A stretch of 59,880 nucleotides of DNA from a virus (Duplodnaviria > Caudoviricetes): the IMG/VR virus record IMGVR_UViG_3300008266_000061, positions 1 to 59,880 of that record; one strand, written 5' to 3'. The notes beneath the pieces were generated by a model, which was given only the letters and a program-made list of their open reading frames with translations, made no database searches and had not been told where the DNA came from. The translations under genes and the position numbers were made by a program. Shown piece after piece: positions 6,502 through 11,215 of the stretch (its first letter is position 1; every line of letters starts with the position of its first letter).

Positions 6502-6807
6502 TCAATTATCTTCATCTAACAGTTTGAACTTTAGTTTGTCGTATTCCCCGACCGGGCGGACAACTTCAAGTTCTTTAAAGTGCCCACCGAGCCAAAGGTA
6601 CATATCGTTTCCTGTCAATTCATACAGTCGGATGTTTATCAACCTCATTAGCGACCGATCTCGCTTGTATTGCTTGTGAGGCTTGTGTGTACCCTTTTTG
6701 GGGCAGCTTACGTCGTCAGTTAGCAGCTTATGCCTCAGAGTCTGGAGGTGTTGCAACTCGGTCAACGTCGATGGCGTAGGTGGTAAGTATATCGGGGTTC
6801 CGTTCAT
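6502..6807 (-). CDS. Hypothetical protein
   Basis: ORF track; overlaps the upstream gene by 80 nt. Confidence 0.6.
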   Translation of the reverse strand: MNGTPIYLPPTPSTLTELQHLQTLRHKLLTDDVSCPKKGTHKPHKQYKRDRSLMRLINIRLYELTGNDMYLWLGGHFKELEVVRPVGEYDKLKFKLLDEDN

Positions 6808-7213
6808 TGAAAAAATCTAATAATAGTTCTTGTTTGGCTGGGTCTAAGTCTGCAATGAAGTGTCGTATCTTATTTCTACGAACCGCATTGAACTCATAGT
6901 CTCTCTTTAGAGTTTTAATAGCGTGGCATACGGTTGCGTGATCTTTATTGATTAACCGGGCAACCTCTGCTAAGGTTTTTGTCGTGCATACCTTGACTGT
7001 TGTCATAAACACCTGCCTAGCAAGGACGATGTCTGCAAGTCTTTTGTCACTCTTGATGTCGCTGGTAGCAACAATAAAGTGTTTGCTAACCTTTTGAAGA
7101 AGCTCGTCTCCATCGGCATCCTCCATCTTGTGAATGTACTCGTAAACCTTTGTGAAGTCGGCTCTCTTAGCTGGTGGAACCATGTCCACTAAATCTTTGA
7201 ATGTATATCTCAT
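6728..7213 (-). CDS. DnaA C-terminal (domain IV) DNA-binding domain protein
   Basis: IVLARQVFM...TLAEVARLINKDHATVCHA resembles the DnaA domain IV signature (RDHTTVxHA); no AAA+ domain. Confidence 0.8.
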   Translation of the reverse strand: MRYTFKDLVDMVPPAKRADFTKVYEYIHKMEDADGDELLQKVSKHFIVATSDIKSDKRLADIVLARQVFMTTVKVCTTKTLAEVARLINKDHATVCHAIKTLKRDYEFNAVRRNKIRHFIADLDPAKQELLLDFFNERNPDILTTYAIDVDRVATPPDSEA

Positions 7214-7281: not shown

Positions 7282-7911
7282 TTAGAATGGCAAATCGTCT
7301 CCAGGATGCTCAACGTATTCGGTAGCGTGAGAGTCTAACTTTTTAATTGCACTTACTGACTTGACTTGCGGAAGGAAAATGTCATTAAGATGCTTCTCAA
7401 AGAACTCTTGACGCTCTGAGTCATCCCAAACAACTTGCCCTTTGACCTTTACCTGTTTCATCTCAGGCATATTACCGGGGTTGTCCTTTGTCCACGCCCA
7501 CTTGATGTCCTCTTGTCCTTGACGCAAGTAAAGCATTGTGCGCGTCTTGCCGTCGACCTCCTTTGACCACGGGGTAAGAGTAACCTCCTTCCCCGCATCA
7601 ATGTTAGGCATACACATAAAGAATCCTGATGAGTAACGTGAACTCCACGGCATTTGGATTTGATACTCGCTGTCTTGATCCTTCAGAACTATACAAAGCT
7701 GATCGCCGTAGCCCTGCTCGGAAACACGCTTGAATACGTCTGTGATGTAGCCTGAAAGCGACGTGTAACGCTCCTCGTACCAAATCTTAGTACCGTCTTT
7801 GCTCATGCACTTAATTGAGCCAGCTGTACCCTCAGGAACACGCTTGGCAATCTTACCGCCAGCAATGCTGAGGTAAGTACGGTTTGATGAACCACCTTGA
7901 TTTAATCCCAT
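7282..7911 (-). CDS. ssb: Probable single-stranded DNA-binding protein
   Basis: C-terminal DDLPF tail; next to primase-helicase; own promoter element at 7944-7951. Confidence 0.65.
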   Translation of the reverse strand: MGLNQGGSSNRTYLSIAGGKIAKRVPEGTAGSIKCMSKDGTKIWYEERYTSLSGYITDVFKRVSEQGYGDQLCIVLKDQDSEYQIQMPWSSRYSSGFFMCMPNIDAGKEVTLTPWSKEVDGKTRTMLYLRQGQEDIKWAWTKDNPGNMPEMKQVKVKGQVVWDDSERQEFFEKHLNDIFLPQVKSVSAIKKLDSHATEYVEHPGDDLPF

Positions 7912-7990: not shown

Positions 7991-9931
7991 TTATTCCCAC
8001 GCTTCTTTGTAGCCGTTTGGATGATCAGTTTCCTCGTTCCATTCCTTGGCATCGCGTGAATCAGTCCAATTTCTGTTCGGCTTGATGACCGATGGCTTCG
8101 GTTCTTCAATTTGAGCCTGTACGTACTTGCCGTCAATCGCCTGTTGCAGGTAGTCAACCCCATCAAATGTAAACCTCCGAGTGTTCCTCTGTAGTTGGAA
8201 CTCAAAGAAGCCCTTTATACCCACGATTTTTTGTCGGCGGATCTTCTTACTATGAAACTCGCAGATAGGGCTTTCTGGGGCCGTCTGGGCAAACGGACGG
8301 TGGTATATGAGGATGTTGTCTGCCTTGTTGTTCCACATCGCTCCGTCGGCAAGGTCAAATACCTCCGGACATGGGTAGTTCCCGTCGTCCCCTTTCCTCA
8401 TCTTGTGCGGGTGGACCACTATGTCAAAGTACACGTTGTTTTTCCGTGCAAAACGAGTACAGTCAGACAAGAAAGTTTCCAAATACTTGTCACTTCTTCC
8501 GCCGCCCTTCGTATAGTCATTCGCCATTTGGTTGAATGGATCAATGATCACCCTTTCCACGCCATGTTTGATAATGAGACTCAAGAAAACTTCTTTAACG
8601 TAATCCGGTGTTGGGCTTACGTCTTTGGGGTATACCATGAAGATATGTTCGCCAATCATCTTGTACACCTTCATGTACAAATCGTAGCTTGGTCGATTTG
8701 GATTGTTTGGCGTACAGTCCTTTCCAAAATAGATTTCCACAAGGTCGTGGTAAAACTGTTCGGCAGGTAACTCCTCCGGGGTAAAGATGGCAACCTTCTC
8801 TCCAAACTTGACTATACGGAATATCATCTCCCACTTCATGAATGATGACTTGCCATAGTTTCCTATTCCGGAAACAATTGTTAAATCCCCCTTCACTCTT
8901 TTGAAGTGTTTGTCAAGTAGTGGAACGCCTAGAGGTTGTGCCGCACGATATCCGTGGAGGTAAATCTCGGAAGCCTTTTCCATAACTTCCTCCGCATAAA
9001 TGACGTCCTGTGCGGCTATATTCTCCGCATCTTCTGCGGTGATTACGATGTCAACCTCCACTCGGTTACTCTTTGTAACCAACTGGTCTTTGGTAAACTC
9101 GGCGGTGTTCCACTGGTTCATGTTGGCCCTGTACGCGCTACGTATCGCCTGTCTGCACTCACGTTGGCTGAAACTAGCGTCAGGAACAACGTAGGTCATC
9201 ATCATGTTATAGCACGTCTCCTCAAGCATCCCGAACCTGCAACAGCTTGCGGCTAACTTGAACACGAAGTGATTTCTTTCCCCCTCACGGAACGCGTCCC
9301 CCTTGGAGGTCATCCATGTCAGCAGGTTGTTAAAAATCTTGTCGTCGTCGTTAATCGTTTCGGTAGTTGTCTGTTGTGGCAACCTTCTGTCGGCCTTCTT
9401 TACTGGCAATTTGTTAAAAACCTCAGCGTTTGGATTGTAATAAATTTCGGGATCATACGACTCAAAGCATAGGCGGGAAACATTTCGACCAGTCTTGTCA
9501 ATGTCTGGGAAATCATTCATTAAGGCATCGAAATGCTCCTTATGCATGGTATTCCATTCAATCCGAACCAAGGCCTTCAGTCCCTTTCCAGAAGGTGATA
9601 CCCAAACAGCCGTAATGTAACTTATAAGTGACAATTCATTTCTTTTTTGGGTGATATTAGGGACATTATCGAAATCAAGCACAATGTAACCAGAGTGTTC
9701 GACAAGCTCTGAGTCCTTACGTTTGTTAAAAACCCCACTAAAGCAAGCTGCTGGAAGTCTCTTCTTTAACTCGTCCGCCTCCTTTTTGGTTTTAGCTTCC
9801 CTCGCCTTCTCGACGAGTTCCTTTGACTTTCCAGTCCTAATTCGTTCAAGTGCGCCCAACACAGTAATCGTGTGTCCTTGCAGGTCGTTGAAGTCTTTGT
9901 AGATTGAGATTTTACCATGTATTGCTGTCAT
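7991..9931 (-). CDS. Primase-helicase: BT4734/VirE_N-like primase domain, PriCT-like domain, DnaB/twinkle-type SF4 helicase
   Basis: HSGYIVLDFD...SPSGKGLK...DVSRLCF-like (NVSRLCFESYDP); GERN; Walker A GIGNYGKS; Walker B IIDP; VVHP; NKADN. Confidence 0.85.
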   Translation of the reverse strand: MTAIHGKISIYKDFNDLQGHTITVLGALERIRTGKSKELVEKAREAKTKKEADELKKRLPAACFSGVFNKRKDSELVEHSGYIVLDFDNVPNITQKRNELSLISYITAVWVSPSGKGLKALVRIEWNTMHKEHFDALMNDFPDIDKTGRNVSRLCFESYDPEIYYNPNAEVFNKLPVKKADRRLPQQTTTETINDDDKIFNNLLTWMTSKGDAFREGERNHFVFKLAASCCRFGMLEETCYNMMMTYVVPDASFSQRECRQAIRSAYRANMNQWNTAEFTKDQLVTKSNRVEVDIVITAEDAENIAAQDVIYAEEVMEKASEIYLHGYRAAQPLGVPLLDKHFKRVKGDLTIVSGIGNYGKSSFMKWEMIFRIVKFGEKVAIFTPEELPAEQFYHDLVEIYFGKDCTPNNPNRPSYDLYMKVYKMIGEHIFMVYPKDVSPTPDYVKEVFLSLIIKHGVERVIIDPFNQMANDYTKGGGRSDKYLETFLSDCTRFARKNNVYFDIVVHPHKMRKGDDGNYPCPEVFDLADGAMWNNKADNILIYHRPFAQTAPESPICEFHSKKIRRQKIVGIKGFFEFQLQRNTRRFTFDGVDYLQQAIDGKYVQAQIEEPKPSVIKPNRNWTDSRDAKEWNEETDHPNGYKEAWE

Positions 9932-10589
9932 CTTGAATAGGCGTTTGTTTTATTGCTTTCGTTTGTGTTTCGTCTTCCCATCTCTTGTCGCGAAGATATC
10001 GAACCGGGTCTTTCCAGTATTTCCGTTCGCGACCCGATTTGTGGTTATTCATGCATTCTACCGCAAGTGTGCGCTCATCAGAAGATAGTTTGTTCCAAGC
10101 AGTTTGTGCTTGTTTCTTATCCACCTTCTTGTCGTAAGCAGTCCAAAAATCCTCAAATGCGTATTTGTATATTATTATTTCTTTGTTTGTATTTGTTTCT
10201 TTATATATATCGAGGTTTTCCGATTCACGGAAATCCCCGACATCGGGAAATCCCGACATCGGGAAATCCGCATCTCGGGAAAGCTGAGGTGCATCATATA
10301 CAATATGGTTCCATCCCACCATCCTGTTGGTGCTTGAATCTATTTGACGGCAACTCAAGATGTACCCCTTCTCTTGCAGGGACTTAAACACCCTGTCTAC
10401 TGCGTTTTTTGCATCTGGCATCTGATTATAAAGATTCTTTTTGTAAAGAACCCAATTCTCCGGAAGGGAAAGAAGAAAGCAAAGCATACCTTTCTCTTCC
10501 ATTGTCAAATCCTTAGACTGTGAGATTTCGTTCGGGATAATAGCAAAGTCATGCTTGCGCTTCCCTTTAACAATTTGTCCTGTATTCAT
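9912..10589 (-). CDS. Phage replication initiator (N-terminal winged HTH)
   Basis: FAIIPNE...LTMEEKGMLCFLLSLPENW...LQEKGYI; C-terminal FEDFWTAY.KKVDK...YL..KRWED; internal iterons; start taken at MNTGQ. Confidence 0.8.
   Translation of the reverse strand: MNTGQIVKGKRKHDFAIIPNEISQSKDLTMEEKGMLCFLLSLPENWVLYKKNLYNQMPDAKNAVDRVFKSLQEKGYILSCRQIDSSTNRMVGWNHIVYDAPQLSRDADFPMSGFPDVGDFRESENLDIYKETNTNKEIIIYKYAFEDFWTAYDKKVDKKQAQTAWNKLSSDERTLAVECMNNHKSGRERKYWKDPVRYLRDKRWEDETQTKAIKQTPIQDDSNTW
10229..10284. repeat. 16-bp iteron-like repeats (three and a half copies) beside an AT-rich tract; putative origin
   Basis: GGAAATCCCCGACATC / GGGAAATCCCGACATC / GGGAAATCCGCATCTC / GGGAAAGC; AT-rich tract about 10161-10210. 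Confidence 0.75.
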
Positions 10590-10594
10590 AAGAT

Positions 10595-10712
10595 AAAAAA
10601 AGCTCGCAAGAACCACTTTGCGAGCTTTTGAATTGGTAAGTAATTATACCCATCCAACCCTAGTTTACTGTGGTTCGTTAGCAAACGAGGGGTGAAATAT
10701 GTGGCAAACATA
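10595..10712 (-). promoter_or_regulatory. Structured leader / attenuator of the initiator gene
   Basis: TATGTTTG at 10705-10712; hairpin 10658-10691; terminator hairpin plus U tract 10595-10629 just before ATG 10589. Confidence 0.7.
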
Positions 10713-10731
10713 AACTACCCACGCGAGGATG

Positions 10732-10923
10732 TCAAGGATTTTCGTCTTTATTTTTCAAGTGCCAGGTTTCGCAGTCCCAGCACATATAGATAATTTGGTC
10801 CGCATCCTTATGAGACTCAGCCTCTTTACGAGTTTTGTATGGGCGCTTGCCACATCCGTATTCGGAGGCTCTTATCATTAGTGCGAGGGATAAAACGGTA
10901 AATATGATTGACAGAATAAACAT
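10732..10923 (-). CDS. Small Zn-binding protein with hydrophobic N-terminus
   Basis: CGKRPY.TRKEA...YMCWDCETWHL motif. Confidence 0.65.
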   Translation of the reverse strand: MFILSIIFTVLSLALMIRASEYGCGKRPYKTRKEAESHKDADQIIYMCWDCETWHLKNKDENP

Positions 10924-10927
10924 ACTG

Positions 10928-10995
10928 CAAATTTACTCTGTTTAATACTATTTCCAAGCACCAAGTTGACACTGTGTTGTTTTTGAGTATATTTG
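10928..10995. promoter_or_regulatory. Back-to-back divergent promoters between replication and morphogenesis blocks
   Basis: Minus TAAATTTG 10928-10935 and plus TATATTTG 10988-10995, each with TTG 19 bp upstream. Confidence 0.75.
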
Positions 10996-10999
10996 CAGC

Positions 11000-11215
11000 A
11001 TGAGTAATTTGTTCCCGCCCGACCACCGGGTATTCATTGAAATAGAAAACAAAACAGACAAGCAGATTGACGCGGTAATAACTAAGGTTGGAAACTTTTG
11101 TGAATTTGAGGTTGGTCAGCGCGTTTGCATTGTCGGAAAGGTAGACAAAGTTGAACTGCAAGATGTAACGGAGTACTCCGTACACGAGCGATACATCGTG
11201 ATGGTATATGAATAA
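11000..11215 (+). CDS. GroES/Cpn10-like protein lacking the mobile loop
   Basis: LFPPDHRVFIE...AVITKVG...FEVGQRV...VHERYIVMV aligns by eye with GroES. Confidence 0.6.
   Translation: MSNLFPPDHRVFIEIENKTDKQIDAVITKVGNFCEFEVGQRVCIVGKVDKVELQDVTEYSVHERYIVMVYE

Follow-up and report, generated by a model that had tools for sequence, protein, structure and literature searches.

Attenuators of the pT181 type reportedly rely on an antisense RNA from the opposite strand together with alternative pre-emptor and terminator folds. In the IncI-alpha plasmid ColIb-P9 (Asano and Mizobuchi 1998), a pseudoknot between a loop and a distal site is said to switch translation of repZ and to compete with Inc RNA. 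For phage P4, CI RNA is described as being made from the leader, pairing with sites in the same leader and stopping transcription before the replication genes (PMC4825925). Kissing contacts are described for further RNAs: in the corrinoid riboswitch, a cis contact of 4 to 5 bp between loops L5 and L13 was proven by compensatory mutants (PMC10327014), and identical molecules of the phi29 pRNA multimerize by kissing contacts (PMC4201828). Here, we analyzed the leader RNA of the replication operon of a virus of the Caudoviricetes (Duplodnaviria), in which a loop near the 5' end is complementary to the loop of the intrinsic terminator that precedes the replication initiator gene. The window, i.e., the whole stretch of DNA analyzed, is the complete IMG/VR virus record IMGVR_UViG_3300008266_000061 of 59,880 nucleotides (nt), with an estimated completeness of 91%, and the leader region lies on its minus strand between positions 10,712 and 10,590.

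The leader RNA of about 105 to 110 nt holds a first hairpin (P1), a small second hairpin (P2) and the intrinsic terminator (P3), followed by the initiator AUG (Table 1). An earlier note on this DNA, made by a model from the sequence alone, had described the first hairpin, the terminator, its U tract and the 5-nt gap to the AUG, all of which were found base for base, and had pointed to a complementarity of 7 nt between the two loops. The motifs concerned, GAACCAC in the P1 loop (L1) and GUGGUUC in the terminator loop (L3), are exact reverse complements. By hand arithmetic, the chance of such a 7-mer match between a 10-nt and an 8-nt loop (4 x 2 placements) is about 5e-4, and among 20 terminator-like hairpins that a script listed in the window, only P3 has a loop with a complement of at least 6 nt within 130 nt upstream. 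Both motifs are predicted to be accessible, with mean unpaired probabilities across 40 leaders of 0.97 for L1 and 0.85 for L3 versus 0.40 for the whole leader. Taken with the comparison of related leaders, we consider it very probable that the RNA-RNA pairing of L1 with L3 is real and under selection.

A search of viral contigs with the initiator yielded 38 loci, and a search with an alignment as the query yielded 80. After two 5'-truncated loci had been dropped, 94 leader-bearing locus entries (37 plus 57, from overlapping contig sets) were compared, and the two loops were concordant in every one of them. Three codes were distinguished: code A (GAACCAC / GUGGUUC), present in both loops of 49 entries; code B (GAGCAAC / GUUGCUC), present in 33; and code C (GUAAGGC / GCCUUAC), present in 12. 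Another 20 loci (12 A/A and 8 B/B) came from scanning metagenome contigs for the pattern. Altogether, 43 distinct leader cores were obtained, consisting of 22 A/A, 20 B/B and a single C/C, with no mixed leader. Contigs carrying types A, B and C share a name prefix.

The switches between codes are compensatory. In an alignment of 40 distinct leaders, the L1-L3 helix (columns 33 to 39 with columns 107 to 113) is 98.6% paired, compared with 29 to 57% when the partner columns are slid. Two of its pairs switch on both sides (AU in 22 and GC in 17 leaders; CG in 22 and AU in 17), with no G.U pairs and no intermediates, and the observed L1-L3 pairing or covariation score was reached by none of 500 shuffles. 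The sole misfit row of the alignment is the type C leader, which is out of register and whose own 7-mers are complementary. Duplex energies separate the codes clearly, with cognate pairs at -9.0 to -9.1 kcal/mol and noncognate pairs at +1.4 to -2.8 kcal/mol. The stems covary too, with both-side changes in 7 of 12 P1 pairs and in 3 of 9 terminator pairs, and 99.1% of the terminator cells are paired. Two points of the earlier note can be judged on these alignments. Loss of loop complementarity in homologues, which it had named as a refutation, was not seen in any of the 43 distinct leaders, and its statement that the G-U pair of the first hairpin works only on this strand holds in general: there are 75 G.U or U.G stem cells across the 40 leaders, every one of which is an A.C mismatch on the opposite strand.

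The matched loops could in principle have been inherited as a block. However, a four-gamete test identified 19 columns between L1 and L3 that show all four allele combinations with loop type, and the sole positions with just two combinations were two columns each in L1 and L3 and a neighboring stem pair of the terminator. Some 34-nt P2 segments are shared, without any difference, by A-type and B-type leaders, and the differences between two of the leaders (L090 and L096) are essentially confined to L1 and the terminator. As the leader region recombines, the matched loops do not merely reflect shared ancestry.

The search for a protein partner bears on an alternative in which the two 7-mers act as DNA, namely, as an inverted protein-binding pair in an operator or origin element, with the RNA hairpins being incidental. 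Origins and operators often adjoin initiator genes, and two copies of one site would change together. Across 30 distinct loci (19 A and 11 B), however, the only k-mers (of 7, 8 or 10 nt) linked to loop type within 3 kb on either side were those of L1 and the terminator hairpin, which leaves room for a specificity protein whose gene lies beyond that distance. The initiators share one conserved C-terminal domain but have any of three unrelated N-terminal DNA-binding domains, each of which occurs with more than one loop code. Likewise, the DnaA_C-like protein encoded in the replication module does not track loop type, some A and B phages having almost the same version of it. The genome shows no enrichment of the 7-mer (6 copies versus 8.1 expected), and no iterons or origin-like repeats were found in the leader, with repeats and AT-rich sequence lying inside the initiator gene instead. 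Since neither the N-terminal domain type, nor the DnaA_C-like protein, nor any other k-mer within 3 kb tracks the code, and since the 7-mer is not enriched, a direct RNA-RNA contact is favored over a protein-binding site. Together with the covariation and the strand-specific G.U cells of the surrounding hairpins, and with the apical-loop position of the motif in both phage groups (see below), this makes DNA sites very improbable.

The N-terminal domains of the initiator (9912-10589) are swapped among closely related phages (loci L026, L029, L032 and L034). A further copy of GUGGUUC at 7889-7895, in codons 6 to 8 of the gene at 7282-7911 that follows the primase-helicase gene, was considered as a target and rejected, as it is kept in type B phages too and shows no covariation.

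The same design recurs, with different complementary sequences, in a second phage group. The initiator of a distant match, L117, shares only the C-terminal domain, and the layout ahead of its gene is the same as in the window leader, with a -7 box, a small hairpin with the loop A-GUGGAAG and a long terminator with the apical loop C-CUUCCAC. Its relatives comprise 12 loci, among which six distinct leaders with a terminator-type domain were counted; four further loci of this group were left out, as coding sequence or a hairpin lacking a U tract precedes the gene in place of a promoter/terminator leader. The test was done domain-wise; whole-window minimum-energy folds pair the two 7-mers directly. 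All six terminator-bearing leaders have a perfect complement of the apical loop, 6 to 9 nt long and different in each, near the 5' end (per-leader shuffle p of 1e-4 to 0.018; Fisher combined p of 6.8e-11). In three of the six, the 5' element lies in an unstructured stretch, not in a hairpin loop. The unit is always located 5 to 15 nt before the initiator AUG in both groups.

In another phage group (L115:900-1085), the hairpin loop GUGGUUGU is complementary to an 8-mer within a 16-nt stretch that occurs twice. Each copy of this stretch stands directly before an ATG, one of which is the initiator start. The arrangement may be a translational version of the same idea.

The terminator stands between the promoter box (10712-10705) and the initiator AUG, and the same arrangement is found in all related leaders. 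As the initiator has no other promoter, read-through of P3 is obligatory for its expression. Because P3 stands in the way of initiator expression, the element counts as an attenuator, taken broadly. Obligatory read-through also makes an expression-neutral element implausible, which counts against the idea that the terminated leader is a stable small RNA with some other job (structural, multimeric or as a primer), with L1-L3 pairing shaping or protecting it and initiator expression being uncontrolled. Such an RNA would suit a strong promoter followed by a strong terminator, a length of about 105 nt with three hairpins and a 5' end only a few nucleotides from a long hairpin, and self-complementary loops are described as driving the formation of phi29 pRNA multimers (PMC4201828). 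Yet the unit keeps its place directly before the initiator AUG in both groups, the initiator lacks a promoter of its own, and the context suggests no other role; we therefore regard this alternative as improbable.

We tentatively favor a model, possible though short of probable, in which leader RNAs pair with each other and thereby exert a dosage-dependent, code-specific control of initiator expression. P3 would stop most transcripts, and a single promoter would thus give rise to many free leader RNAs and fewer read-through mRNAs. As each leader holds both L1 and L3, two leaders could join head to tail, with L1 of each bound to L3 of the other. The free fraction of read-through mRNA available for initiator expression would then fall as the leader concentration, and with it the phage genome dosage, rises. 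Cross-regulation between phages would require that they share one 7-nt code (A, B or C). The start site, termination in vivo, pairing in trans and the effect on initiator expression are what we infer in this model.

The alternative of a contact in cis only, in which L1 and L3 of the same RNA kiss or form a pseudoknot and so tune termination, or the translation or decay of the read-through mRNA, is doubtful, although nearly as likely as pairing in trans. The evidence from covariation, linkage and accessibility fits it equally well, and proximity favors intramolecular pairing kinetically. In the second group, moreover, the apical loop of the 40- to 80-nt terminator domain would be transcribed well before the U tract, and the 5' element could capture it first. 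The situation in the window leader is different. The kinetic argument assumes that RNA polymerase encloses about 14 nt of the growing transcript. As L3 ends 14 to 15 nt before the end of the U tract, it would leave the polymerase only at the point of termination, which makes a pre-emptive switch in cis unlikely. Furthermore, a 7-bp match worth -9 kcal/mol should be constitutive in cis, and a cis contact alone would therefore not be a switch. No conserved alternative antiterminator was found, with RNAalifold yielding P1 and P3 only and the pairing past the 7-mer, by eye, differing between types. The loop-loop switch proposed in the earlier note thus stands as far as the conserved complementarity is concerned, whereas its simple pre-emptive cis form is weakened by these kinetics and by the lack of a conserved antiterminator. 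Precedents for a contact in cis would be the loop-to-distal-site pseudoknot reported for ColIb-P9 and, in the corrinoid riboswitch as described, the L5-L13 kissing loop (PMC10327014).

Geometry and specificity also favor pairing between molecules over a cis contact. In an end-to-end stack of P1 (16 to 17 bp), the loop helix and P3, the P2 connector would by a hand estimate have to span about 100 Å in cis, making it short for coaxial kissing when P2 is folded. By the same kind of estimate, the connector in an antiparallel head-to-tail dimer would only bridge two neighboring helices. A perfect 7-bp loop match made up entirely of Watson-Crick pairs would be what intermolecular antisense recognition usually shows, whereas the kissing loop that acts in cis in corrinoid riboswitches has only 4 to 5 bp (PMC10327014). 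A contact in cis does not call for discrete orthogonal codes; codes that are discrete, co-occur and recombine fit a specificity function, without proving one.

Several points weigh against pairing in trans. Two loops on the same molecule meet each other at a very high local concentration. Several second-group leaders have a single-stranded 5' element joined by a long flexible linker, so that an intramolecular pseudoknot would form easily. Free leaders would titrate each other, blunting their action as regulators. The three codes correspond to about two independent switching events, and their discreteness may therefore reflect history, not selection for orthogonality. The start site, termination and RNA abundance on which the model builds are all inferred, and its geometric and kinetic arguments are hand estimates. 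In addition, no integrase or repressor was matched among the 20 ORFs (open reading frames) scanned.

An extension of the trans model, which we consider unlikely, is that the leaders of these lake Flavobacteriia phages carry a programmable 7-nt address code, with self-pairing serving as a dosage sensor and the codes defining RNA incompatibility or immunity groups among coinfecting phages. Selection would then keep the two halves of each code matched, whether A, B, C or one of those in related groups, amid free recombination in the rest of the genome.

The fold of the leader itself is well supported. The minimum-energy fold consists of P1, P2 and the terminator (-37.2 kcal/mol, z = -4.27), and none of 200 shuffles was as good. 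In P1, the 5' arm (10691-10680) and the 3' arm (10669-10658) enclose the loop at 10679-10670, with 11 of 12 positions paired, one C.U mismatch and one G.U pair. P1 is possibly longer by four pairs (10696-10693 with 10656-10653), which would give -14.1 kcal/mol. RNAalifold likewise lengthens it to 16 to 17 bp, and one of the four added pairs changes on both sides in 5 leaders. As this extension excludes the UUGG/CCAA base of P2, the P1 extension and P2 may alternate. P2 varies in sequence, with 25 distinct segments among related leaders, each of which folds at -4.0 to -9.5 kcal/mol. In a subgroup of B-type leaders (e.g., L005:2920-2945), an additional short hairpin lies between P1 and P2 and overlaps the P1 base. 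The terminator P3 has a 9-bp core stem (10626-10618 with 10609-10601), which A-U pairs extend to a 12-bp stem with 5 GC pairs, and a loop at 10617-10610. The U tract follows immediately; the hairpin is a canonical intrinsic terminator and was also recovered by a terminator scan.

Transcription is predicted to start near 10700. Besides the Bacteroidota-type -7 box, the promoter reads as TTGACA-N17-TATGTT (a 10/12 match), which is kept in all related leaders. The upstream hexamer contains the stop codon of a conserved 63-amino-acid (aa) ORF (10732-10923, minus strand), which has a hydrophobic N terminus and a Cys-rich end and for which no Pfam or PHROG match was found. A leader peptide was considered and rejected: the 41-codon ORF starts inside the -7 box, and among 38 related leaders the ORF has anywhere from 11 to at least 55 codons, changes frame and is missing in type C. 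In Rfam, neither the window region nor any of 8 related loci from the two phage groups matched a family at its gathering score. Scores below the threshold were obtained for Trp_leader (25.5 bits versus 41), trpB (26.7 versus 59) and Thr_leader (16.9 versus 55), and the weak Trp- and Thr-leader matches reflect the hairpin-plus-terminator shape only.

Table 1. Features of the leader and of the replication module, in window coordinates (HTH, helix-turn-helix)
Feature	Position	Strand	Evidence or remark
Upstream hexamer TTGACA	10730-10735	minus	overlaps stop codon of the 63-aa ORF
-7 box TATGTTTG, Bacteroidota-type TAnnTTTG	10705-10712	minus	motif match
Hairpin P1, 12-bp stem and 10-nt loop	10658-10691	minus	-10.9 kcal/mol; 7/12 pairs changed on both sides
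L1 code GAACCAC, 3' part of P1 loop	10670-10676	minus	unpaired probability 0.99
Hairpin P2, variable sequence, weak hairpin kept	10633-10657	minus	minimum-energy fold
Intrinsic terminator hairpin P3, 12-bp stem including A-U pairs, 8-nt loop	10598-10629	minus	-16.0 kcal/mol
L3 code GUGGUUC, terminator loop	10610-10616	minus	complementary to L1
Terminator U tract, 7 U	10595-10601	minus	5 nt, then AUG
Replication initiator, 225 aa	9912-10589	minus	phrog_270, E 1.6e-19; AUG at 10589-10587
Primase-helicase, 646 aa	7991-9931	minus	BT4734-like_N, E 7e-20; PriCT_1; phrog_18375, E 9.5e-51
DnaA_C-type HTH protein	6728-7213	minus	replication module

The replication module comprises the minus-strand genes from about 10,900 downwards, and the terminase and structural genes lie on the plus strand from about 11,000. 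The initiator and primase-helicase that the earlier note had placed downstream of the leader are borne out by profile matches (phrog_270 for the former; BT4734-like_N and PriCT_1 for the latter), and the start of the primase-helicase gene overlaps the end of the initiator gene. Distant annotated relatives of the initiator are RepA-like and DnaD-like. A metallophosphoesterase gene also belongs to the module. Within the initiator gene, the interdomain linker contains an AT-rich stretch and direct repeats (10095-10260), among them a 16-mer repeated in tandem at 10228-10259; this region is a candidate replication origin. Between the two gene blocks, the divergent promoter region at 10911-11012 forms a 28-nt imperfect inverted repeat with 79% complementarity. 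Its -7 boxes lie at 10935-10928 (minus strand) and 10988-10995 (plus strand), each followed after 4 nt by an ATG (10923 and 11000, respectively). Given this spacing, the first genes on both sides may be translated from leaderless or nearly leaderless mRNAs.

The host of the phage probably belongs to the Flavobacteriia, as the primase-helicase matches mostly come from Flavobacterium phages and the Bacteroidota -7 box is enriched. Matches to the primase-helicase were found in 185 deposited phages, 162 of which are Flavobacterium phages, all at less than 60% identity. The motif TAnnTTTG, described as the -7 box of Flavobacterium and Bacteroides (PMC7641319), has 61 matches in the window versus 44.9 +/- 6.0 expected, and none of 100 shuffles reached 61. 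No nucleotide-level relative was found among the deposited phages or among the genome contigs searched. A search of sequencing runs listed no RNA run that contains this stretch, and one run contained a small part of it, as contigs only. A leader of this kind is missing from the two cultured Bacteroidales phages that encode a distant homologue of the initiator, as the gene abuts its upstream neighbor in both.

RNA regulation is poorly known in Bacteroidota, which are not known to use Shine-Dalgarno-based initiation. The complementary loops kept in every relative examined point to a control of phage replication by RNA that is as yet undescribed. Should the pairing govern initiator expression, it would represent a previously undescribed type of RNA regulator acting on phage DNA replication in this phylum. 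Such a design would be economical, with one promoter and one terminator making both regulator and target. The natural orthogonal 7-nt codes show specificity evolving by paired changes under free recombination, and they offer ready-made kissing-loop parts.

Several described systems come close to the leader in logic. As P4 CI is described, both are phage leader RNA elements complementary to sites in the same leader, with premature termination ahead of replication genes. CI is, however, processed from the primary transcript and has two flanking targets (PMC4825925), whereas the leader described here has one pair of sites, both in hairpin loops and one in the loop of the terminator itself, and occurs in a different host lineage. 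Neither CI nor a related RNA family was among the Rfam matches listed at E values up to 10 for the window region. With pT181-type attenuators, the leader has in common its place ahead of a rep gene, a terminator just before the initiator gene, RNA-RNA pairing that decides expression and the logic of copy number control. It differs in that the complementarity is on the same strand and only 7 nt long, there is no conserved alternative fold, and no TAnnTTTG box was found on the plus strand between 9725 and 10988, where a weak sigma-70-like match (9/12) lies at 10567-10594.

ColIb-P9 is similar in that a hairpin loop of the initiator leader contacts a distal site farther downstream, close to the start of the initiator, and competition by free RNA amounts to copy control. 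There, however, the loop reportedly pairs with something other than a terminator loop, translation is activated by the pseudoknot, and a genuine antisense transcript acts as the competitor. In the corrinoid riboswitch, as described, an upstream loop likewise contacts the hairpin of the expression platform, a terminator or a hairpin at the ribosome-binding site, and so decides its fate. That contact belongs to a ligand aptamer and has a fixed L5 consensus, in contrast to the 7 bp and several orthogonal codes found here without an aptamer, and no cobalamin aptamer was among the Rfam matches listed at E values up to 10 for the window region. Full-text literature searches, supplementary files apart, returned no description of a contact between a 5' element and a terminator loop in phage leaders. 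The phi29 pRNA, as described, resembles the leader as a phage RNA whose identical molecules are able to pair through kissing loops, but it is part of a DNA-packaging motor and not a gene leader, with neither a terminator-loop partner nor a link to replication genes. Overall, the leader element shares parts of its logic with the P4 CI, pT181-type, ColIb-P9, corrinoid riboswitch and pRNA systems and is a member of none of them.
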